Source: a virus
Direction: 5' to 3' (one strand)
DNA: 10,796 nt
Virus record (IMG/VR): IMGVR_UViG_3300028594_000124
Location: 1-10,796 of that record
The notes below the pieces were generated by a model. That model made no database searches, was not told where the DNA came from, and saw nothing but the letters and a program-made list of their open reading frames with translations. Both the position numbers and the translations under genes were made by a program. Below, piece by piece: positions 1 to 10,796 of the stretch; within the stretch, counting starts at the first letter, position 1; each line of letters opens with the position of its first letter.

Positions 1-118
1 CACCGGCGCATACGTTGCGCTTGCCGATGCCATCGCCGTGCTCAAAGAACAAGGGGGTCGCTCCACTTTCCCCAATTCTGTGAAACATTGTGAAACATTT
101 GTGAGTGTGTGAAACATT
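1..118. repeat. Left inverted terminal repeat (ITR-L), probable protein-primed replication origin
   Basis: Bases 1-118 equal the reverse complement of 10679-10796; identity stops at base 119 (t versus g). The outer 73 bp hold 46 G/C (63%). The inner 45 bp carry three TGTGAAACA copies (79-87, 89-97, 108-116). Confidence 0.9.
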
Positions 119-158
119 TTGAAAAACATTTGTGAAACTTCGGAAAATTCTGTGAAAT
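79..158 (+). promoter_or_regulatory. Left-end array of TGTGAAACA iteron-like repeats
   Basis: Perfect 9-mers start at 79, 89 and 108. Degenerate copies lie at 131-139 (TGTGAAACT) and 151-159 (TGTGAAATT). Start-to-start spacings are 10, 19, 23 and 20 bp, close to multiples of one helical turn. The array extends past the ITR boundary. Confidence 0.7.
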
Positions 159-214
159 TATTTTAAAAAACATTGTAATTATTGTTAGTTATCTCTGGAA
201 TTATAAATCTATTA

Positions 215-223
215 TGTTATAAT
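215..223 (+). promoter_or_regulatory. Early promoter, extended -10 (TGTTATAAT)
   Basis: TGnTATAAT lies at 215-223, with no good -35 element. The 16-nt core TGTTATAATAGATATA matches 3765-3780 (TGTTATAATAGAGATA) at 15 of 16 positions. It is the only strong promoter-like element upstream of the first gene. Confidence 0.55.
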
Positions 224-320
224 AGATATATAAGGGGGTTGGAAATGTTTAAATATATATCGTTAGAAATCTATCCATCTAACATATCATAAAACAATAT
301 AAGAAAAGGAATGATACAAA

Positions 321-677
321 ATGGGAATTGCAAAATTTAATAAAGGTGAAGTTTTATTTACGAATACTGAAAGATTTGACGAGTTTCTTTCATTAGAAGA
401 ATTGTTTAAACGTGATGGTAAGGGTAAAAAGTACATTGTGTTAGGGGTTTATGATTATACTAGTTCTTATGGACGTGGTGCATTTGCTAAATCAGATGGG
501 TTCAATATTTCATTACCATCACATATGGTAGATACTGTTAAAGATATTAGAAATGATAATGAAAGTGTAGAACAGATTAACAACTCAATCGTATTTTTAG
601 AAATCTACACATACACATTACCTGATAAATACCCTGATAAAACTTTCTATTCTATTAACTTCATTGTTAAAGATTAA
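321..677 (+). CDS. Hypothetical early protein; possible phi29 p5-like ssDNA-binding protein
   Basis: 118-aa ORF and first gene after the left-end promoter, followed by its own terminator. Its size, its position and the C-terminal pattern VFLEIYTYTLPDKYPDKTFYSINFIV loosely recall phi29 p5 (124 aa, ...FKVKVVQGTSSKGNVFFSLQLSL, from memory). The SD (AAAGGA) is weaker and about 10 nt from the ATG. The functional call is weak. Confidence 0.4.
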   Translation: MGIAKFNKGEVLFTNTERFDEFLSLEELFKRDGKGKKYIVLGVYDYTSSYGRGAFAKSDGFNISLPSHMVDTVKDIRNDNESVEQINNSIVFLEIYTYTLPDKYPDKTFYSINFIVKD

Positions 678-690
678 ATACTAATGGATA

Positions 691-724
691 GGTAGGACTG
701 AAAAAGTTCTACCTTTTATTATTT
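691..724 (+). terminator. Rho-independent terminator or attenuator after the first gene
   Basis: The stem GGTAGGAC (691-698) pairs with GTTCTACC (706-713) with one G-U pair and a 7-nt loop. It is followed by TTTTATTATTTT. Confidence 0.6.
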
Positions 725-740
725 TAAAGGGGGGTTAAAA

Positions 741-974
741 ATGAGAATACCAATAGACAGTATAGGTCAATTTTGTAAGATGTACCGAACATACATTCTG
801 AAATTAACACTTGATGAAATGAGTAAATTATCAGGGGTGAAAGTTCCAACTATTTCAAGTTTTGAAAATGGTAGAAGTACCAATGCTAAACACATTGAAA
901 TGTATTATAAACTTTCAACAGATAAACAAAAGATATTTTTCAAAAACAATATTCCATATGGAAAGGGTGAATAA
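741..974 (+). CDS. XRE/Cro-C1 family helix-turn-helix transcriptional regulator
   Basis: 77 aa. LTLDEMSKLSGVKVPTISSFENGRSTN is a classic HTH_XRE signature (helix, turn, recognition helix, then the E-x-G-R pattern). A strong SD (AAAGGGGGG) lies about 5 nt upstream of the ATG. Confidence 0.8.
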   Translation: MRIPIDSIGQFCKMYRTYILKLTLDEMSKLSGVKVPTISSFENGRSTNAKHIEMYYKLSTDKQKIFFKNNIPYGKGE

Positions 975-976
975 TA

Positions 977-1579
977 TTGGCAGGGGTAGAAATTAAAATA
1001 ACTACTGATAAAACGAATATAAAAAAGCTAACAGCAGAAGAACGTAAATTAAGACAGGAAGCGAGTCGATTATCTTCACTAGCGAATAAACGATTGAAAC
1101 GTATGGAACAACAAAATTTAACTGATTCACCTGCTTATAAAAAGTGGGTAGAAGATGGGAAAGCTAAATTTGGGGTACGTGGAAAATCTATGGCACAAGT
1201 ACAGGCAGAAATTGGTAGATTAAACAATTTTATCAATCAGGCAACGTCTACAGTTAGGGGTGCTAAAAACTACTTTAAAAATATAGGTGCTAGTGTCGGT
1301 ATTGTAGAATGGGAAGATATACCTGATTTACAGAATAAACTAAATAACTTTTTTGAAATTACAGGTAAGGTAAAAGAATACTTACATAATTCAAAAGAAA
1401 TTGGTGTAGCGATTGGTTATCAACAGATTTGGAATGCTGTATCAGATTATGTTCAGGAAGTAACTAATGAAGCGATAGATGTAGAATATGCGGTTATGGA
1501 AGTTGCAGCAAAGTTAGTTCCTGCTACAGGGCTTAAACATATGCACGATACATTAGATGATTTTTTAGATAGTTTTTAA
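977..1579 (+). CDS. Candidate terminal protein (TP, replication primer)
   Basis: 200-aa ORF immediately upstream of the protein-primed DNA polymerase, the same order as phi29 gene 3 then gene 2. TTG start with SD AAAGGGTGA 6 nt upstream. Basic helical N-terminus (KKLTAEERKLRQEASRLSSLANKRLKRMEQQ) and acidic C-terminus, as in known TPs. AYKKWVEDGKAKF faintly recalls phi29 TP AQFNKWKEQASSF. The call rests mainly on synteny. Confidence 0.5.
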   Translation: MAGVEIKITTDKTNIKKLTAEERKLRQEASRLSSLANKRLKRMEQQNLTDSPAYKKWVEDGKAKFGVRGKSMAQVQAEIGRLNNFINQATSTVRGAKNYFKNIGASVGIVEWEDIPDLQNKLNNFFEITGKVKEYLHNSKEIGVAIGYQQIWNAVSDYVQEVTNEAIDVEYAVMEVAAKLVPATGLKHMHDTLDDFLDSF

Positions 1580-1614
1580 ATATTCCAACGTGATACATGA
1601 AAGGGGGGTAGCTA

Positions 1615-3717
1615 ATGTTTGCTGATTTAAAATATAAAACGTATCGTAAATATAATTACCATACGAAACAATCTACCGAATATCTAAATATAGAATGTTC
1701 TTTTGATATAGAAACAACTTCTACTTATGTAGATGGTGAAAAGTTTGCTTTCATGTATCTATGGGGCTTTGGAATTGGGAATGATGGAAAACATATATAC
1801 TATGGTAGAACATGGGAAGATTTAATGATATTTCTTAATACCCTATCTAGTGAATTAGGTTTACATAAAAATAGGGTGTTAGTCTGTTACGTTCACAATT
1901 TAGCTTATGAGTTTCAATTCATGAGAAAATATTTTGATTGGGTAGGTGTCTTTTCAGTAGATGATAGAAAACCGTTAAAAGCATTATCCACTTTAGGAAT
2001 AGAATTTCGAGATAGTTATATGCTTTCAGGTTTTAGCTTATCTAATACAGCGAAAAATTTACAAAAACATGAAATTAAAAAATTAGTTGGTGATTTAGAT
2101 TATAGTAAAGTAAGACATCATGAAACAGAAATCACTGAATTAGAATTACAGTATTTAGAAAATGATGTTGTCATTGTGTTAAATTACATTAATGAACAGT
2201 TAGATATTTACGGTAAGATAACTAAAATACCTTTAACGAATACAGGTAGGGTTAGGGAATTTGTGAAAGATAACTGTTACTATTCTAAAGGTAAAAGTAA
2301 ATATAAATCTAGCAAGGGTAAAAGAAACAACTATCGTGAAATTATGGAAAACCTAACTTTAAAAGTAGATGAATATCAGAAATTAAAGATGGCTTTCATG
2401 GGTGGTTTTACACATGCCAATGCTTATTATACAGGTAAGACTTTAGAAAATGTTCATTCAGTCGATTTTACAAGTTCCTATCCTGCTGTTATATTATCCG
2501 AACAGTTTCCAATGGGTAGGGGTTTTAAACCAACTAAAGAAGAAATTTTAAAAAATGGATATGATTATTATCTAAATAATTTTAACTGTTTGATAGGCGC
2601 TGTATTTATAAATTTAGAAAACCAATTTGCACATGATAGTTACTTATCTGAAAGTAAGTGTAGAATTAGGGGTGAAAAATTAATAGATAACGGTAGGGTT
2701 TACAGGGCAGAAATGGTGTCTACCATGATAACAGAAGTTGATTTATGGATAATGAAAAAAGTGTATAGTTACGATAGTTTACACATTACAGATTTAACTG
2801 TTTATCCTAAAACCTATTTACCTAAACCAATTATTGAAAGTGTGTTAGATTTGTATCAGGATAAAACAACCCTGAAAGGTGTAGCAGGTTCAGAAGTTGA
2901 ATATATGTTATCTAAAGGAATGTTAAATTCAGTTTATGGAATGATGGTTACAGATATTGTAAAAGATGAAGTTACTTATGAAGAAGATTGGGGTATTGAA
3001 GAAGTAGACCCTGTAGAAGAAATTAAAAACTACAATGAAAAAGTAAGCAGGTTTTTGTACTATCCATGGGGTGTATGGATAACCGCTTATGCAAGGCGGA
3101 ATTTATGGTTAGGAATATTATCCCTGAAAGATGATTATATTTATTCTGATACCGACAGTATAAAATTTTTAAATTATGAAAAACATGAACCATTTTTCAG
3201 GGAATATAATGAATGGGTAGAAAAGAAACAACTTGCTACTCTTAACCATTATAGCATAGATACTAATTTACTCTATCCAAAAACTATTAAGGGTGATGTT
3301 AAAGTTGCAGGGCTATGGGATTATGAAGGAAATTATTCACGTTTTAAAACATTAGGTGCTAAACGTTATTTAGTAGAAGAAGATGATGAATTACATTTGA
3401 CAGTTGCAGGGCTATCAAAACGTAACGGTATCGAATACATGAAAGAAGTTTCAGGTGATAATTCTAAAGTGTTTAAAATGTTTACTGATGAATTAACAAT
3501 ACCTGCTAACAGAACAGGGAAAAGCACACACACTTATATAGACAGTGAACATGAATTTCCTGTTACTGATTATACAGGTAAGACAGTAACGGTAAATGCT
3601 AAATCAGGGGTTCATTTAGAAGAAGTAGAATATAGTTTAAATATCAATGATTTATATGTAAGGTTCTATGAATTAGCACAACAGGGCTACCTGCTAAAAG
3701 GGGTTATAAAACAATAA
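1615..3717 (+). CDS. Protein-primed family-B DNA polymerase (phi29 gp2-like)
   Basis: 700 aa. Motifs seen: ExoI FDIETT, ExoII HNLAYEFQF, ExoIII YLENDVVIV, YxGG-like FMGGF, motif A DFTSSYP, motif B KGMLNSVYG, motif C YSDTDS and KxY GAKRY. The SD GGGGGG lies 6 nt upstream of the ATG. Confidence 0.95.
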   Translation: MFADLKYKTYRKYNYHTKQSTEYLNIECSFDIETTSTYVDGEKFAFMYLWGFGIGNDGKHIYYGRTWEDLMIFLNTLSSELGLHKNRVLVCYVHNLAYEFQFMRKYFDWVGVFSVDDRKPLKALSTLGIEFRDSYMLSGFSLSNTAKNLQKHEIKKLVGDLDYSKVRHHETEITELELQYLENDVVIVLNYINEQLDIYGKITKIPLTNTGRVREFVKDNCYYSKGKSKYKSSKGKRNNYREIMENLTLKVDEYQKLKMAFMGGFTHANAYYTGKTLENVHSVDFTSSYPAVILSEQFPMGRGFKPTKEEILKNGYDYYLNNFNCLIGAVFINLENQFAHDSYLSESKCRIRGEKLIDNGRVYRAEMVSTMITEVDLWIMKKVYSYDSLHITDLTVYPKTYLPKPIIESVLDLYQDKTTLKGVAGSEVEYMLSKGMLNSVYGMMVTDIVKDEVTYEEDWGIEEVDPVEEIKNYNEKVSRFLYYPWGVWITAYARRNLWLGILSLKDDYIYSDTDSIKFLNYEKHEPFFREYNEWVEKKQLATLNHYSIDTNLLYPKTIKGDVKVAGLWDYEGNYSRFKTLGAKRYLVEEDDELHLTVAGLSKRNGIEYMKEVSGDNSKVFKMFTDELTIPANRTGKSTHTYIDSEHEFPVTDYTGKTVTVNAKSGVHLEEVEYSLNINDLYVRFYELAQQGYLLKGVIKQ

Positions 3718-3725
3718 AAATTCTG

Positions 3726-3762
3726 TGTGAAACAGTATTCCAATGTTTCACATGGGGTTTTT
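3726..3762 (+). terminator. Early-operon terminator whose stem is an inverted TGTGAAACA pair; probable dual-use operator
   Basis: TGTGAAACA (3726-3734) and TGTTTCACA (3744-3752) give a perfect 9-bp stem with a 9-nt loop, followed by TGGGGTTTTTTG. The hairpin starts 9 nt after the polymerase stop codon. Confidence 0.65.
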
Positions 3763-3764
3763 TG

Positions 3765-3773
3765 TGTTATAAT
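3765..3773 (+). promoter_or_regulatory. Late promoter, extended -10 (TGTTATAAT)
   Basis: TGnTATAAT lies at 3765-3773. The 16-nt core is near-identical to the promoter at 215-230. The expected -35 position (about 3745-3751) falls inside the TGTTTCACA arm. Confidence 0.55.
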
Positions 3774-3809
3774 AGAGATAGATAATTATGAATGAAAGGG
3801 GGTTTAATA

Positions 3810-4910
3810 TTGGAAATTTTCAATCGAAACAAGTTCTACACGTTAGATAGAATTTTAAAATTAAATGCTACCTATAATATGATTATTGGTGAACGTTCCA
3901 ATGGTAAAACATATGCCTGTTTGAAACATGGGATAGAAGAATATTTTAAAGATGGTTCACAATTTGCAATTGTTAGAAGATGGCAGGAAGATATTAGGGG
4001 TAAGCGTGCAAGTGAAATCTTTTCAGCTTTAATGGATAATGATGAAATATATAAAATTTCTAAAGGTGAATTTAAAGGTATCTATTATTGGGCAGGTAAA
4101 TATTACCTATGTAATTATAGCGAACAGGGTAAGCCTATCTATAATGAGCAGGACGTGATAGCCTATCCATTTGCTTTATCAGATACAGAACATAATAAAT
4201 CAATCACATATCCAAAAATAAATACAATAATCTTTGATGAGTTCCTAACAAGGCAGGTATATTTACCTGATGAATTTGTGTTATTCATGAATACAATTTC
4301 AACTATAGTAAGACAACGTACAACAGTAAAAATATTTATGTTAGGTAATACGGTAAATAGATACTCACCATATTTCACTGAAATGGGTATTACCAATGTA
4401 GATAGACAGGAACAGGGAACGATTGACGTTTATAAATATGGTAACGGTGAATTAAAAGTAGCTTTAGAATACACTAAATCTACAGGGAAATCTAAAGAGA
4501 ACAATTTCTATTTTGCTTTTGACAACCCTAAATTAGAAATGATAACTACAGGTGCATGGGAATTAGATATTTATCCACATTGCCCTGTGAAGTTTAAACC
4601 TAAAGACATCCTGTTTATTTATTTCATAGAATACAATGACGAATTATTTCAGTGTGAAATAGTAAATAAAGATAACAACCTTTTCACTTTCATTCATAGG
4701 AAAACAACAGAATTACAGAATACAGATACTGATTTAATTTACACTTTTGATTATGTACCGAAAATAAATTATAATAGAAGTATATTAAAACCGAGAAATC
4801 AATTAGAAAACCGAATACGTGAGTTCTTTATGTTTGATAAAGTTTACTATCAGGATAATGAAGTGGGTGATAGCATTAATAATTATCTAACACAATGCAG
4901 GAAAGGATAA
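3810..4910 (+). CDS. DNA encapsidation (packaging) ATPase, phi29 gp16-like
   Basis: Walker A GERSNGKTYA (gp16 GARGIGKSYA), FAIVRRW (gp16 FIYVRRY) and Walker B TIIFDEF (gp16 TIVFDEF). I prefer the TTG at 3810, with SD AAAGGGGG 7 nt upstream, over the track ATG at 3792, which has no SD and lies only about 11 nt from the predicted transcription start. Confidence 0.9.
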   Translation: MEIFNRNKFYTLDRILKLNATYNMIIGERSNGKTYACLKHGIEEYFKDGSQFAIVRRWQEDIRGKRASEIFSALMDNDEIYKISKGEFKGIYYWAGKYYLCNYSEQGKPIYNEQDVIAYPFALSDTEHNKSITYPKINTIIFDEFLTRQVYLPDEFVLFMNTISTIVRQRTTVKIFMLGNTVNRYSPYFTEMGITNVDRQEQGTIDVYKYGNGELKVALEYTKSTGKSKENNFYFAFDNPKLEMITTGAWELDIYPHCPVKFKPKDILFIYFIEYNDELFQCEIVNKDNNLFTFIHRKTTELQNTDTDLIYTFDYVPKINYNRSILKPRNQLENRIREFFMFDKVYYQDNEVGDSINNYLTQCRKG

Positions 4911-4921
4911 GGGGTGAGTGA

Positions 4922-5842
4922 GTGGATAAATTAGATAAACAGAATTTTTATGATTTTCAAAATGGAATTGCATTATATAAACCAACTGATAAACTAAGTA
5001 ACATTAATCATTTAATCAATTCATATCTAAACAAAACTTTAGCAATGTTTCAATACACCAATTTACCTGATACATTACCTGATTTAGAATTAGAAAAGAT
5101 GTTGCAGGTGCAGGGGCAGGTGTTCATAACAAAATACAATGATGATGTTGTTGCTTTGAAAATAGATTTACTTCATGATGATGTAGATGTTTACGGTAAA
5201 GCTAAAGCAGGGAACGTTTATTATCCTGATACTAAAGTATTTAAGAAAGTGAATTTGTCTGATGGGGTTTTGATACAGAATGATTATTTAGGTTTAGGAC
5301 TTTTAGAACTGTTTAAAAAATATGCTTACTTAATTAATGAAAGTGCATTATCTTTAAACATGGCGAATTTCTGGAAACGTACTGAAAAAGTATTTACCGC
5401 AAATGATGACGCTACATCAGAAAGTGTTAAAAACTATTTAGCAAAAACTGAAAGGGGTGAAATTGGGTTAGTTACTAGTAATTTACTTTATGAAAGTATT
5501 AAAGTAAATACACCACAAGCAAATGGTACTAGTTTAGGTGAATTAATAGAATACCACAATTATTTAAAGTCGCAACTGTATGCAGAAATTGGTTTATATA
5601 CCAATGAGAACAGAAAGAAAGAACGACTAATAACAAGTGAAGTAGAAACAGGTTTAAATGCTATCTATCCATTAGTAGATAATATGTTAGATAATCGTGT
5701 GCAGGGAATGGTAAAGGTCAATGAAATGTTTGATTTAGATATTCAAGTTGAATTTATGAGTTCATGGAAAGCGAACAATGAAGATAGTGAAAATATGGAT
5801 CCAAAAATTGAAGATTTAAAAATTTTAGAAGATGATGATTAG
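4922..5842 (+). CDS. Portal / head-tail connector (upper collar) protein, phi29 gp10-like
   Basis: 306 aa (gp10 is 309 aa). FQYTNLPDTLPDLELEKML resembles gp10 FEWENLPPTINPSFLEKSI. NENRKKERLITSEVE resembles gp10 NLEKKERMVTDEVS. GTG start with SD AAGGGGTGAG. Confidence 0.85.
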   Translation: MDKLDKQNFYDFQNGIALYKPTDKLSNINHLINSYLNKTLAMFQYTNLPDTLPDLELEKMLQVQGQVFITKYNDDVVALKIDLLHDDVDVYGKAKAGNVYYPDTKVFKKVNLSDGVLIQNDYLGLGLLELFKKYAYLINESALSLNMANFWKRTEKVFTANDDATSESVKNYLAKTERGEIGLVTSNLLYESIKVNTPQANGTSLGELIEYHNYLKSQLYAEIGLYTNENRKKERLITSEVETGLNAIYPLVDNMLDNRVQGMVKVNEMFDLDIQVEFMSSWKANNEDSENMDPKIEDLKILEDDD

Positions 5843-5852
5843 GGGGTTTTTG

Positions 5853-6083
5853 ATGGAAAGTTCTATTTTAGATGTTGTTAGTAATTTAGGTTTCCCTATA
5901 GCGGTGAGTGTAACATTGTTTTATCAGATGAATAAAACGAATGAAACATACGTGAAATTATTACGTGATTTTCAGGATGTAATAAGTAACAATACACATT
6001 CTATTAAGTTACTAAATGCTACCGTTCATGAATTGAAAAATGATTTAGGTTATAGAGATGTAGATACAGGTGAAAGAAAATGA
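5853..6083 (+). CDS. Small single-pass membrane protein with a YvrJ-like N-terminus; holin candidate
   Basis: 76 aa from the ATG at 5853, with SD AGGGGG 5 nt upstream. ILDVVSNLGFPIAVSVTLFY is a hydrophobic helix carrying the N-x-GFP motif I associate with the Bacillus YvrJ family. It is followed by a polar helical tail. The stop overlaps the next start (ATGA at 6080-6083). Confidence 0.6.
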   Translation: MESSILDVVSNLGFPIAVSVTLFYQMNKTNETYVKLLRDFQDVISNNTHSIKLLNATVHELKNDLGYRDVDTGERK

Positions 6084-6655
6084 AACTAAAAGATTTAGTA
6101 GTTGGTGATTATAATATTTTAGATTACATTTCGTTCTTTGATGATATATCAGACACTAAACCCTATTTTGCAGAATTAACGTTTATGTATGGTGAACGTG
6201 AATTATTAACTAAAGCAGAAGATTTATTTTTATCTAGTGATTTAGGGGGTGTTGGTTTGATGTTTGATTTGAAAAGTCCTGATTGGGAACAGTTGAAAAT
6301 TGTAGCTAAAAGATTAGTAGATGATGGAATGTTAGAAACTACCACCACCAAAACAACTGATAGAACAGATACTGTAGACAGAACAGGTACTAATTCTAGT
6401 GATGTAGCAGATGATGATTTTGTAGTAGCTTATGATGAAACAGTAGACACTAAACAAGCAGGAACAACAAGGTCAGATACTAAAGAAAATATTGAAAATG
6501 TAATCAATGAATTAGCAGGAACAGATACCACTGTTAAAACAGGATATGATAAAAACAGAATGGAATTTATAACGACACTGTTTAAAGAGTATCCTAATTA
6601 TAGGTTAGAAATTTATAAAGATATTGTAAATGGTTTATGTATTCAGGGTTATTAA
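6080..6655 (+). CDS. Acidic T/D-rich virion-module protein; candidate lower collar/adaptor or scaffold
   Basis: 191-aa ORF translationally coupled to the upstream gene, between the portal and capsid genes. A central low-complexity tract (TTTTKTTDRTDTVDRTGTNSSDVADDD...GTTRSDTK...GTDTTVKTG) is present. I recognise no motif, so the function is inferred from position only. Confidence 0.35.
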   Translation: MKLKDLVVGDYNILDYISFFDDISDTKPYFAELTFMYGERELLTKAEDLFLSSDLGGVGLMFDLKSPDWEQLKIVAKRLVDDGMLETTTTKTTDRTDTVDRTGTNSSDVADDDFVVAYDETVDTKQAGTTRSDTKENIENVINELAGTDTTVKTGYDKNRMEFITTLFKEYPNYRLEIYKDIVNGLCIQGY

Positions 6656-6683
6656 AATAAAAAATATAAAGGGGTAGTAAAAT

Positions 6684-7838
6684 ATGAAAGTAGAACAAAT
6701 TCATACAATTTTAAATACAGTTACAAATGAAGTGTTAGGTACAGAAAATTTAGTTAGTGAAGATTTATCCAATATTGTTGATGTTGGTAATGAAATTTTA
6801 AATGCTGAAAAGGTAGATAGTTATGTTAAAAAATTAGTACACCACATTGGGAAAGTAGAATTTTCTAATCGTAAATATAGGGGTAATGCTAAATCAGTAT
6901 TAATGGATAGTTGGGAATATGGTTCAATTTTACAAAAGATTGAAAGTGAATTACCTGAAGCAACTGAAAATGAGTCATGGAATTTAGTAGATGGACAATC
7001 TTATGACCCTAATGTTTTCCATCAACCAAAAGTATCTTCTAAATTTTTTGATAGTAAAGTTACGTTTGAAATTCCTGTATCATTTGCAGAAAAACAAGTA
7101 AAAGGGTCATTCTCAAATGCTAGTCAGATGAACGGTTTCCTAACAATGATTACGAACAACGTTGAAAATTCATTAACGATTAAATTAGATAGTTTAATTA
7201 TGCGAACAATTAATAACTTCATTGGGGCTACATTATTAGATGAAAATTCTAATACTAGTGTAAACTTGCTGAAAATGTATAATGACGCTATGGGTGAAAC
7301 TTTAACAGTTGCAGATGCTTTAACAGATAGTGCGTTTTTACGTTATGCCAACTTCATTATCAATACATACACTGATAGAATGTCACGTATTTCTACACTG
7401 TTTAATAAAGGTGGTAAAGAACGTTTTACGAATAAAGAAAATGCTAATCTAATTCTATTGACTGATTTTGTAAATAGTTCAGATGTGTTCTTACAATCAG
7501 ATGTACGACACAATGAATTAACAGGTGTAGCTAAATTTGATACGGTTCCTTATTGGCAAGGTTCAGGTACAGGGTATTCATTAGATGAAATTTCATCTAT
7601 CAATGTATCTGTAAATGACGGTACAGCGACTTCTAAAACAGTTGAACAATCAGGAATTATCGGAGTACTGTTTGATAGACAAGCACTAGGGGTTACGAAT
7701 TTAGATAAACGTGTTACAACGAATTACAATCCTAAAGCAGAATTTTATACTAACTTCTATAAAGCAGATGGCGGATACTTTAACGACTTTAACCAAAACT
7801 TTGTTGTATTCTACATTGAAGATGATAGTGCTGCTTAA
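6684..7838 (+). CDS. Major capsid protein (HK97-fold, Picovirinae type)
   Basis: 384 aa. It has a strong SD (AAAGGGGTAG) and is followed by a strong terminator, as expected for the most abundant virion protein. GVLFDRQALGV resembles phi29 gp8 AVLVDKDWFMV. There is no Ig-like C-terminal extension. Confidence 0.75.
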   Translation: MKVEQIHTILNTVTNEVLGTENLVSEDLSNIVDVGNEILNAEKVDSYVKKLVHHIGKVEFSNRKYRGNAKSVLMDSWEYGSILQKIESELPEATENESWNLVDGQSYDPNVFHQPKVSSKFFDSKVTFEIPVSFAEKQVKGSFSNASQMNGFLTMITNNVENSLTIKLDSLIMRTINNFIGATLLDENSNTSVNLLKMYNDAMGETLTVADALTDSAFLRYANFIINTYTDRMSRISTLFNKGGKERFTNKENANLILLTDFVNSSDVFLQSDVRHNELTGVAKFDTVPYWQGSGTGYSLDEISSINVSVNDGTATSKTVEQSGIIGVLFDRQALGVTNLDKRVTTNYNPKAEFYTNFYKADGGYFNDFNQNFVVFYIEDDSAA

Positions 7839-7854
7839 TTAAATAACTGAATAG

Positions 7855-7882
7855 GGTGGAATTGACGTTCCACCTTATTTTT
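7855..7882 (+). terminator. Rho-independent terminator or attenuator after the capsid gene
   Basis: The stem GGTGGAA (7855-7861) pairs with TTCCACC (7868-7874) around a 6-nt loop. It is followed by TTATTTTT. Confidence 0.7.
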
Positions 7883-7899
7883 ATATAAGGGGTGAATAC

Positions 7900-8283
7900 A
7901 TGAGTGACAATTTAAAAATATATACGAATAAATCAGACCAAAATATTATCAATAAAGATAAGGAAATAGTATCTACTTTAGAATGTACCTTTAAAGATAA
8001 TATTGATATACTAAATCCTATTCTACTAATTAAAAATTATACAGGTGGAAACTACTGTTACATTTTAGATTTTGAACGGTACTATTTTATAGATGATGTT
8101 AGTTTATTAAAGGGTGGGGTGTATCAGTTGCATTGTTCTGTAGATGTTTTACAGTCATATGCTGATGAGTTAGAAAACAGTGAATATTATTCAAGTGATG
8201 GGGTTTTACATACAGTAGAAAATGAAATCGAATTTACTGAAATATATAATCCTGAAAAATTTATTTTGATTATGGGGGTGTAA
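7900..8283 (+). CDS. Tail knob / distal tail tube protein, N-terminal segment (phi29 gp9 N-terminus-like)
   Basis: 127 aa. NYCYILDFERYYFIDDVSLLKGGVYQLHCSVDVLQSY resembles the phi29 gp9 N-terminal [44 protein letters not shown] is present. The ORF ends at TAA, in frame with the next ORF. Confidence 0.6.
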   Translation: MSDNLKIYTNKSDQNIINKDKEIVSTLECTFKDNIDILNPILLIKNYTGGNYCYILDFERYYFIDDVSLLKGGVYQLHCSVDVLQSYADELENSEYYSSDGVLHTVENEIEFTEIYNPEKFILIMGV

Positions 8284-8286
8284 AAA

Positions 8287-9942
8287 ATGGCAAGTGAATT
8301 ATTACGTATGGTTGAACATGTTGAGTTATGGGGCGACCCTGAAATTGTTAAATTGACAGGTTATTTAACTGAAAGTAAAAAGAATTTATTACTAACTGTT
8401 GAATTAAAAAACCACTATTTCATAGACCCTATAAAATTTACAATGAAACGTGATACAAGGGGTGATTTTAACTATAATCACATTAGTTTTAGTGATTCTA
8501 CACAAGGTGTAATATCTGAAATGATTGACGGTGTAGAAAGAAATACAGGAATTATATCTCTTAATGTTGGGTTAGATACCACCACTACAAAAGTTGAAGT
8601 TATTGTCAGTCCTGATAACATTGTTCAATATGAACCACAAATTGATGGACAATCTTTAATGATTGAAAATTATAATGTTGTAAATGCTTATGTTGATACT
8701 AGTTATATACCGTTTAATTCTAGTGGGGTGATAGTTAGTAATTTCAGTTCTGATGGTGATAACGTTCAAGAAGTTGTGATTGAAGATACTTTACGTGTTA
8801 CAGCAAATGATGGGTATAAATTTGATTTAGATAATTTAGAAGATTATTATTTTGATGTTCAATTTCAACCGTATAATTATAATTTACGTTTGAGTTATGA
8901 TAGTACTGTACCATTCATACGTGTAAATCTTTCAGAATTTAGACCTGCTACAGGTATATCAACTTTTAATTGGATAGAAAAAAGCTCTAGTTATCCACTA
9001 TATCAAAGCGTACCTACTGATGGTACTATGTTCTATACTTATTCTGTAGGTGATACTAAACATTTGTTATTGTTATATGGTGGGTTACGTGAAAATGATT
9101 TACTATTTTTCACTTTCACTAAATCAAAATCAGGTTATGATGATATAGCATTTACTATGAACGGTGAAGAGTGGGTTAGGACAGATTTATTTTCTGCTAG
9201 TCTTTACGATTCTATAACAGATGAACGTCTTGAATTGAGTTTTTTAAATAATCTAAATTTTGTTGCCGTACCATCTACAACTACACCTATAGAAGATACT
9301 TCTAAATATTTATTTAATACTTATTACATTGATAATTCTGATTTGTCTATGTTACGTGAAAATAGTGGGTTAGTGAGTGAAGTGATTATAAATACCTATT
9401 CCTATCCTATAAACTTTTCAGATGATGATTTGGTAGATGTAGATTTTTCAGTAGCGAATATTACACAAAATATTCCTGCTAAACGATTTTTATTTAATAA
9501 TACAGAAGTAGAAATTTTTAAATTTACTATTCCTGATGTTCCTGATGTTTCAGATATACGTATCAGAATACCGTTTAATAATGATGTTACACTACACTAT
9601 GAAGATGTTAGGGGTAAAACAATAACAGGTAGATTTAGTTATGAAGTTTTAACGAATAGTACAACGTTATTTATTAATGATGGGGTTACAGATATTTACA
9701 AAAACATGGTAGGTGTTGGTGTTGTTGTACCATACAGGGCTACAGGTAGATATGATGGGGGTAACGACCCTACAACACGTTTAGCAGTTGATGAACCTAA
9801 GTTATTCATTAAAGGGGTTGGTAAAACGATAAAAGGAAATTACATTCAGGGTACGATTGGTAAAGTAGTTGAAAATATGTTAAATTCAGAACGTGATAAA
9901 TTAAATACATTACTAGAGAATGGGGTGTTTTTCAATGATTGA
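8287..9942 (+). CDS. Tail knob C-terminal segment, probably also the receptor-binding protein
   Basis: 551 aa. The C-terminal NSERDKLNTLLENGVFF resembles the phi29 gp9 C-terminal NNDLQEIRTIFDNGITLW. EIFKFTIPDV...IRIRIPFNNDVTLHYEDVRGKTITGRFSYEV recalls gp9 [23 protein letters not shown]...KIQVRGSLG. It has its own SD (GGGGGTG) 6 nt upstream of the ATG. No other tail or fibre gene is present in the genome. Confidence 0.55.
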   Translation: MASELLRMVEHVELWGDPEIVKLTGYLTESKKNLLLTVELKNHYFIDPIKFTMKRDTRGDFNYNHISFSDSTQGVISEMIDGVERNTGIISLNVGLDTTTTKVEVIVSPDNIVQYEPQIDGQSLMIENYNVVNAYVDTSYIPFNSSGVIVSNFSSDGDNVQEVVIEDTLRVTANDGYKFDLDNLEDYYFDVQFQPYNYNLRLSYDSTVPFIRVNLSEFRPATGISTFNWIEKSSSYPLYQSVPTDGTMFYTYSVGDTKHLLLLYGGLRENDLLFFTFTKSKSGYDDIAFTMNGEEWVRTDLFSASLYDSITDERLELSFLNNLNFVAVPSTTTPIEDTSKYLFNTYYIDNSDLSMLRENSGLVSEVIINTYSYPINFSDDDLVDVDFSVANITQNIPAKRFLFNNTEVEIFKFTIPDVPDVSDIRIRIPFNNDVTLHYEDVRGKTITGRFSYEVLTNSTTLFINDGVTDIYKNMVGVGVVVPYRATGRYDGGNDPTTRLAVDEPKLFIKGVGKTIKGNYIQGTIGKVVENMLNSERDKLNTLLENGVFFND

Positions 9943-10618
9943 TTTATTTATAGCAGGTCATGGTAAAAATTTAAAAACAGGTGGTTTTGATACAGGTGCA
10001 ACAGGTTATATTTCAAAAGGTGAGCATAGATATATGACAGAAGATTTATTCCCTGCCATGAAAAAATATATACCTGATGGTGTTAAACCTATTTTCCATA
10101 CTGAATATAATGTTTATAGTCAGGGAAATATTGTTTCACTTGCTAAGAAGTATGGAAAAGATGTAAGGGTAACAGAATTTCATTTTGACGCAGGCGGTGT
10201 AAACTATTCAAAAGCAGGTGGACACGTTATTATTCAATCAGGGTTAAAACCTGATGAATTAGATTTACGATTAAGAGATGCTATCAAAAATACAACAGGG
10301 TTACACCCTATTCATTCTGATGGTATCAGTAGACGTAACAACTTACTTAATCCACGTTTAGCTATGCAAGGTGGTATTAATTATAGGTTACTAGAATTAG
10401 GAATGAGTACACATAAAGAGAATGCTAACTACATGATTAACAATGTTGATACCATTGCTAAAGAGTTAGTAAAAGCATTTTATTCTACTACTAAATCTAC
10501 ACCATCAACAGATAAATTATACAGGGTACAAGTTGGTGCATTTAAAAAGTTAGATAATGCAAAACAATTACAAAATGAATTGCGTGCTAAAGGTTATGAT
10601 GATTGTTTTATAATCTAA
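9935..10618 (+). CDS. Endolysin: N-acetylmuramoyl-L-alanine amidase (Amidase_3, CwlC-like) with a short C-terminal SPOR-like repeat
   Basis: IAGHGKN..GGFDTGATGY..GEH, FHFDAG and LELGMSTHKENANYM fit the Amidase_3 zinc and catalytic pattern. After a T/S/P linker, the C-terminal YRVQVGAFKKLDNAKQLQNELRAKGYDDCFII fits a SPOR repeat. I prefer the ATG at 9935 (SD GGGGTG 7 nt upstream, an ATGATTGA overlap with the upstream stop) over 9920. Confidence 0.88.
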   Translation: MIDLFIAGHGKNLKTGGFDTGATGYISKGEHRYMTEDLFPAMKKYIPDGVKPIFHTEYNVYSQGNIVSLAKKYGKDVRVTEFHFDAGGVNYSKAGGHVIIQSGLKPDELDLRLRDAIKNTTGLHPIHSDGISRRNNLLNPRLAMQGGINYRLLELGMSTHKENANYMINNVDTIAKELVKAFYSTTKSTPSTDKLYRVQVGAFKKLDNAKQLQNELRAKGYDDCFII

Positions 10619-10629
10619 TAGATATTTGA

Positions 10630-10660
10630 ACGTGGTATAAATATTTATATCACGTTTTTT
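10630..10660 (+). terminator. Rho-independent terminator of the late operon
   Basis: The stem ACGTGGTATA (10630-10639) pairs with TATATCACGT (10646-10655) with one G-U pair and a 6-nt loop. It is followed by TTTTTT (10655-10660) and starts 12 nt after the endolysin stop. Confidence 0.75.
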
Positions 10661-10718
10661 GTTTCACAGACTGCACACAATGTTTCACACACTCACAAAT
10701 GTTTCACAATGTTTCACA
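10660..10718 (-). promoter_or_regulatory. Right-end array of TGTGAAACA iteron-like repeats (read as TGTTTCACA on the plus strand)
   Basis: Perfect copies lie at 10660-10668 (outside the ITR), 10681-10689, 10700-10708 and 10710-10718, with spacings of 21, 19 and 10 bp. The copy outside the ITR mirrors the left-end degenerate copy at 131-139 to within 2 bp. Confidence 0.7.
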
Positions 10719-10796
10719 GAATTGGGGAAAGTGGAGCGACCCCCTTGTTCTTTGAGCACGGCGATGGCATCGGCAAGCGCAACGTATGCGCCGGTG
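10679..10796. repeat. Right inverted terminal repeat (ITR-R), probable protein-primed replication origin
   Basis: Exact reverse complement of 1-118. Carries TGTTTCACA at 10681-10689, 10700-10708 and 10710-10718. Confidence 0.9.

Follow-up and report, generated by a model that had tools for sequence, protein, structure and literature searches.

Sliding-back during protein-primed DNA replication requires a nucleotide reiteration at the terminus, and the template ends read 3'-TTT in phi29 and Cp-1 and 3'-CCCC in PRD1 (PMC4974454). Phages of the Astrithrvirus group have been listed among the phi29-like phages in a review (PMC11476376). These podoviruses (DU_PP_III, Phanie, Salmonella phage astrithr and assan) have linear genomes of 10-12 kb with the same gene order as the viral DNA studied here and, with polymerases 52-55% identical to its own, are its closest cultured phages. 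The inverted terminal repeats (ITRs) of two of them are GC-rich over the first 20 nt and start with GGG: that of Pectobacterium phage DU_PP_III, 219 bp long, begins with 5'-GGGAT (GGGATATCC, in a longer read-out GGGATATCCGCCCC), and that of Acinetobacter phage Phanie, 171 bp long, with 5'-GGGTT (GGGTTATCC, in a longer read-out GGGTTATCCGCCCC).

We compared with these phages the window, that is, the whole stretch of 10,796 nt. Unlike theirs, the contig ends are not GGG, and a terminus of the family type is found 37 nt inside. The ends read 5'-CACCGG without terminal nucleotide reiteration, as the original prediction had stated for the contig as deposited. Its wider claim, according to which a classic sliding-back terminus is absent from the ITRs, is unsupported for the lineage. 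We read the missing reiteration as a defect of the contig ends, and not of the phage, because the homologous termini of the relatives are 5'-GGGATTAAAG.

The phage genome and its relatives

The window is a genuine phi29-like, protein-primed podovirus genome of complete-looking size (10.8 kb), a metagenomic contig from JGI/IMG and no cultured isolate. It contains 13 substantial ORFs, all on the + strand, and has the features expected of a phi29-like phage: a protein-primed polymerase, the module of Gp16 ATPase, connector and phi29 major capsid protein, and ITRs. The assigned genes, together with a terminator-like element, are listed below.

741-974, + strand: small HTH_3 regulator (Pfam/PHROGs)
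977-1579, + strand: candidate terminal protein, 200 aa (assigned from its place directly before the polymerase)
1615-3717, + strand: protein-primed family B DNA polymerase (Pfam DNA_pol_B_2, E = 2.4e-15; PHROG 1907, E = 1.2e-84)
3792-4910, + strand: phi29 Gp16-type packaging ATPase (PF05894, E = 3e-20)
4922-5842, + strand: phi29-type connector (PF05352, E = 7e-10)
6684-7838, + strand: phi29-type major capsid protein (PF25622, E = 2.4e-51)
+ strand: holin-like protein (Pfam/PHROGs)
9920-10618, + strand: SPOR-domain lysin (Pfam/PHROGs)
10628-10657, + strand: intrinsic-terminator-like hairpin with a 13-bp stem and T-run, after the lysin gene and just inside the right iterons

The 200-aa product of ORF 977-1579 had no family match in the Pfam and PHROG search and is proposed as a candidate terminal protein (TP) from its position in the phi29-like gene order. 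Pfam and PHROGs gave no match either for the first ORF (321-677, 118 aa), which is a candidate origin-binding or DNA-binding protein. Its early place at the left end and its length of 117-118 aa are kept in the relatives whose gene tables were inspected, and it is followed by a terminator-like hairpin with a 10-bp stem and T-run (690-714, + strand). The hairpin at the right end is kept in four relatives (L088, L161, L162 and L155). An Rfam scan of the window returned no matches.

Relatives were gathered via the capsid protein, from IMG/VR, from metagenome contigs, and from a protein collection followed by contig look-ups. Public data hold at least 7,978 relatives of this protein at E<=1e-100, and the samples in which the clade occurs include biogas, rumen, fermentation and gut metagenomes. 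This clade of 10-11 kb phi29-like phages is very large and little studied; megablast against a GenBank phage collection found no relative of the window by DNA similarity. Two Logan contigs, L006 and L007 (SRR7705359), are 99.7% identical to it. The connector of L006 (4834-5763) has 309 aa versus 306 aa in the window (4922-5842), owing to a short in-frame indel close to the acidic tail at the C-terminus, and mismatches elsewhere are sparse (11 in 6.2 kb).

Termini of the contig and of its relatives

The ITR of the window is perfect over 118 nt. A recount agreed with the original prediction on the base composition of the ends: 46 of the first 73 bases (63.0%) and 27 of the first 40 (67.5%) are G or C, against 30.1% for bases 74-10723. 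Internal segments of 73 nt have a mean of 30.0% GC (sd 4.8%) and a maximum of 49%, which places the ends about 6.8 sd out. The two Logan contigs, which were built with k=31 and break at 89 and 10708, reproduce the inner limit of the ITR at 118; for this k a stop 30 nt into the ITR is expected, and the outer block lies beyond their span.

Seven independent clade contigs that reach a genome end stop exactly at 5'-GGGATTAAAG, namely L003 and L156 (both at the two ends), L015, L013, L088, L161 and L162. Their capsid proteins are 75-93% identical to that of the window (90% for L088), and L162 has about 90% DNA identity to the window over most of the genome. For 9 out of 9 termini from these contigs the best ungapped offset is window base 38, with 22-30 identities over 40 positions, which were matched by 0-7 of 1000 shuffles; likewise, in a MAFFT alignment of the four full-length termini, position 1 falls at window base 38. 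From this base on, the relatives and the window have in common AAAGA at nt 7-11 of the relatives' numbering. The six nucleotides before it are GGGATT in all seven contigs and GTGCTC in the window. Independent ends that start further in, an outcome which had been named beforehand as telling against the block, are essentially what is seen in the seven contigs and in two cultured relatives, with GGG at base 38.

The junction would lie between 37/38 and 43/44, and most likely at 43/44, because GTGCTC stands where all seven relatives have GGGATT; bases 38-43 would then still belong to the add-on. Bases 38/44-118 are the true ITR and carry the origin of the clade. The add-on would probably comprise bases 1-37 and, beyond these, probably bases up to 43, and from the comparison of termini the real genome most likely ends about 37-43 nt inside the contig ends. 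The ends of the window can thus be divided as follows.

1-37, + strand: GC-rich (68%) terminal add-on, probably non-genomic, with no counterpart in relatives
38-43, + strand: GTGCTC at the place of the clade-invariant hexamer GGGATT, 3 of 6 identical (alignment and termini listing)
44-118, + strand: genuine left ITR with the replication origin, corresponding by homology to nt 7 to about 80 in the relatives' termini
10679-10753, - strand: bona fide right ITR and origin region (perfect ITR, termini comparison)
10754-10759, - strand: GTGCTC again, in mirror image, where the family has the hexamer GGGATT (ITR and alignment)
10760-10796, - strand: mirror copy of the add-on (perfect ITR)

The left end of L162 (ENA ERZ27280539, k141_317234) marks the terminus in another way, as there a 25-nt sequence, GTTCAGACGTGTGCTCTTCCGATCT, is fused directly to GGGATTAAAG. 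GTTCAGACGTGTGCTCTTCCGATCT is identical to the 3'-terminal 25 nt of the Illumina TruSeq read-2 adapter. Because the adapter was ligated directly to it, the first G of GGGATTAAAG in L162 is the physical end of the DNA; the same fusion indicates that non-genomic sequence does get assembled onto these termini. More widely, GGG starts 13 of 168 contig ends of relatives, versus about 2.6 expected, and more distant metagenomic relatives start with GGGTTATCCCACC, GGGATATACCCACC, GGGACTCACCCC and GGGTACCCCC. Since the termini of the relatives and of the cultured phages begin with GGG, the lineage has a classic terminal GGG reiteration.

Two other approaches to the terminus were of less use. An internal GGGGG at 53-57, considered as the true end on the model of the distant relatives L072 and L082, was rejected, as closer relatives put the terminus at base 38. 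A scan of IMG/VR for GGGATTAAAG-N17-22-TTTCCC returned 62 unrelated internal matches plus L003, and was uninformative.

The same comparison divides the GC-rich block of 73 bp, which had been described as one unit with a composition boundary at about base 74. That boundary is wrong, as homology to the relatives' termini starts at base 38-44; bases 38-73 (58% GC; 50% for the same stretch in L088) are part of the conserved origin region and only bases 1-37/43 are left unexplained. A moderately GC-rich first 20-36 nt is normal for this group, the first 20 nt having 70-80% GC in L064, L067, DU_PP_III and Phanie, and this accounts for bases 38-73. The description of the block as coding-like did not hold up: G or C does occupy 10 of 14 third positions in frame 2, but it also occupies 11 of 14 first and 7 of 13 second positions, and there is no third-position-specific signal. 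Similarly, the two short palindromes that had been pointed out do exist, but bases 1-73 fold no better than shuffled sequences (z = +0.33; 119 of 200 folded at least as well).

Source of the outer block

The outer 43 nt have about 67-68% GC, without low-complexity or index-like structure, and the composition breaks abruptly at the block (68% versus 30% GC). With bases 1-78 or 1-130 as blastn queries, matches to phages, plasmids and E. coli genomes were at chance level or absent; the phage collection should include common laboratory phages such as phiX and lambda. One match to a "phage" record (MT836153) was discarded, being to an unrelated Bacteroides-like scaffold that aligns only to the iteron region. 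Exact scans with a 27-mer (bases 18-44) and a 24-mer (bases 6-29) found nothing in IMG/VR, a metagenome collection and 185,579 species genomes, and when the fetched loci, roughly 160 in all, were searched by BLAST with bases 1-43, nothing scored below E = 0.5. Six-frame translations of bases 1-118 had no match at E<=10 among 5.8 billion proteins, a search that is underpowered for 13-17 codons. The best local match between the block and 16 common adapters and primers was 7 nt. In all, no donor of the outer block was found among phages, plasmids, E. coli, viral and metagenome contigs, the 185,579 genomes and proteins, and the match to an adapter, a vector or a host that had been foreseen was searched for (16 adapters, plasmids, E. 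coli, phages, genomes) and did not appear. The block is possibly a gene fragment from a higher-GC organism.

From the sequence comparisons, we consider it likely that the outer 37-43 nt are a non-genomic appendage that was mirrored to both ends through a collapsed ITR. An unrelated fragment of high-GC DNA would have been joined, in a chimeric library molecule or a chimeric read, to a fragment of the phage end that lacked its first 6 nt, and the assembly would have extended the dead-end ITR path along the foreign DNA. The true tip, of just 6 nt, would easily be lost in graph cleaning and may be poorly sampled too, for we reason that TP-capped ends ligate badly. The two ITR copies would collapse into one path of the k-mer graph, and the junk would be written at both contig ends, creating an apparent ITR of 118 bp with a strange terminus. 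Because a collapsed ITR writes the same path twice, the presence of the block at both ends is not independent evidence. The loss of GGGATT fits a join to a broken end and not a functional origin, and the CACCGG end itself counts for an artefact because the reiteration needed for sliding-back is absent.

A chimera of the same class is found in a sister assembly and sets a precedent. The first 111 nt of L154 (ENA ERZ27276667, k141_383204) are foreign DNA of about 75% GC, joined on within the connector gene; at this place L155 has normal phage sequence, and the two contigs are 100% identical from the junction onward. L154 also passes, at 5404-5737, out of the lysin gene and into the first early one via a folded-back piece of ITR, and is thus doubly mis-assembled (with 1-111). 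These ITRs evidently confuse assemblers, as this passage from the right to the left end through folded-back ITR indicates.

What speaks against an artefact is that the collections searched yielded no donor of the 43 nt, and that the add-on is equal in sequence and length at both ends, which needs collapse of the ITR by the assembler. With a final k above 118 (metaSPAdes k=127, MEGAHIT k=141), each end would have been assembled on its own, and a single chimeric read should not then give such symmetry. The possibility of a k above 118 is what chiefly favours a real, homogenised extension or a constant ligated oligonucleotide. In the case of a real extension, foreign high-GC DNA would have taken the place of the last 6 nt at one end and then been copied to the other by panhandle formation or ITR homogenisation. 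Panhandle repair of the adenovirus type would indeed transfer a change at one terminus to the opposite one; in adenovirus, however, it restores functional origins, whereas here it would spread a terminus without the conserved hexamer. The phage would have to replicate from 5'-CACCGG, either with no simple reiteration, by a Bam35- or adenovirus-like jump-back via C1/C3/C4, or from an internal origin. That the block has the same sequence and end point at both ends, that GC-rich termini occur in the wider group (as in L064, L067 and DU_PP_III), and that neither adapter, vector nor host was matched are all in its favour. We nevertheless regard a real extension as improbable, since every relative with a complete end, including the one with about 90% DNA identity, ends at GGG 37 nt further in, and since the symmetry comes free if the ITR collapsed in assembly. 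The invariant GGGATT would moreover have been destroyed and the ancestral origin left internal and mutated, but protein-primed origins must be at the end of the molecule with a terminal reiteration (PMC4974454). If true, a real extension would mean that a protein-primed replicon had exchanged its origin in nature, and would challenge the rule of terminal reiteration.

Ligation of a constant synthetic or laboratory sequence (a linker, a spike-in or a non-standard adapter) to the natural DNA ends seems to us somewhat less probable again. A defined oligonucleotide would give equal length at both ends without ITR collapse, and L162 illustrates that adapters on these natural ends do get assembled, but the block has no similarity to the common adapters and primers or to plasmid and vector backbones, would be an atypical adapter (43 nt, 67% GC, no low-complexity or index-like structure), and is not joined at the natural terminus, GGGATT being missing. 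Least credible, and in our view very unlikely, is a genuine, lineage-specific outer ITR domain on a truncated contig, with the true GGG end still further out. Metagenomic contigs of TP-capped genomes do often lose terminal bases (9 nt at the right end of L161, 21 nt in L089), but the homologous terminus, including the spacing of the TTTCCCCAA box, falls at base 38 in 9 of 9 comparisons, and no relative goes beyond GGG except by an adapter. Of the three readings offered at the outset, a new kind of origin, a captured segment and an artefact, it is the last that is best supported; the other two are less so.

Origin architecture and known systems

With the appendage set aside, the following elements of the origin, and a related element between two genes, can be described.

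66-77, + strand: box CTTTCCCCAATT, conserved throughout the clade at about 30 nt from the true terminus
79-138, + strand: left iteron array with four TGTGAAAC(A) copies, of which three fall within the ITR and one immediately outside it
3726-3752: inverted iteron pair TGTGAAACA-N9-TGTTTCACA, copies at 3726 and 3745, between the polymerase and ATPase genes
10661-10718, - strand: right iteron array, four copies of TGTGAAAC

The comparison thus defines the real origin architecture of the clade: a GGGATTAAAG terminus, a TTTCCCCAA box and lineage-specific iterons. In the ITR of the window the TTTCCCCAA box lies about 30 nt from the end and is followed by TGTGAAACA iterons. The CTTTCCCCAATT form of the box is also present at 10720-10731 in the window and at nt 29-40 in the relatives. 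The window has 10 copies of TGTGAAAC versus 0.64 expected, its array beginning at base 79, and the same array is found in L088, L161 and L162. Beyond the box, the iterons differ by lineage, with TGTGAAACA in the window, TTCACACAA in L003, and GGTTACACAA.

By analogy with PRD1 and phi29, a heterodimer of TP and polymerase would recognise the TP-capped GGG terminus, start synthesis with dGMP paired to an internal C within the 3'-CCC end of the template, and then slide back. An early phage protein, with the HTH_3 protein and the product of the conserved first ORF (118 aa) as candidates, probably binds to the TTTCCCCAA box and to the lineage-specific iterons. The inverted pair lies just upstream of an extended -10-like TGTGTTATAAT (window 3726-3774), and L089 has a similar ACGTGAAACA...TGTTTCACGT at the same place between the genes. 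The iteron-binding protein may also control late transcription. More speculatively, the abutment of the inverted pair on the promoter-like TGTGTTATAAT suggests that one protein serves both for the organisation of the origin and for a transcription switch, a dual role with a loose likeness to phi29 p6 and p4.

The useful product of this analysis is a corrected terminus. Metagenomic phage contigs that are flagged as "complete" from their ITRs can carry mirrored junk at both ends, and the true end can be recovered when the termini of independent assemblies are compared; read-through into an adapter, which L162 shows, helps to mark the physical end. Like the adapter of L162 and the chimera of L154, the add-on would be non-genomic sequence on a contig end with an abrupt compositional break; unlike them, it is at both ends in mirror image and no source was matched.

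As for the cultured Astrithrvirus-like phages, Phanie has a TTCCCCA box about 30 nt in, as in the clade of the window, and its AATTCCCCA is at the same distance from the end as the CTTTCCCCAATT box. The clade differs from them in its GC content of about 30%, its SPOR/Amidase_3 lysins and the absence of minus-strand genes at the right end. The Astrithrvirus isolates, the nearest ones, have been reported on Gram-negative hosts, and lysins of the clade's genomes are of the SPOR/Amidase_3 or the CHAP type. Like phi29, Cp-1 and PRD1, the window encodes a protein-primed family B polymerase, and its relatives share with those phages terminal origins within ITRs and a homopolymer reiteration, which is GGG here versus AAA in phi29 and Cp-1. 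The ITR of this clade is about 81 nt long (63 nt in L156) and contains iterons, compared with an ITR of 6 nt in phi29.
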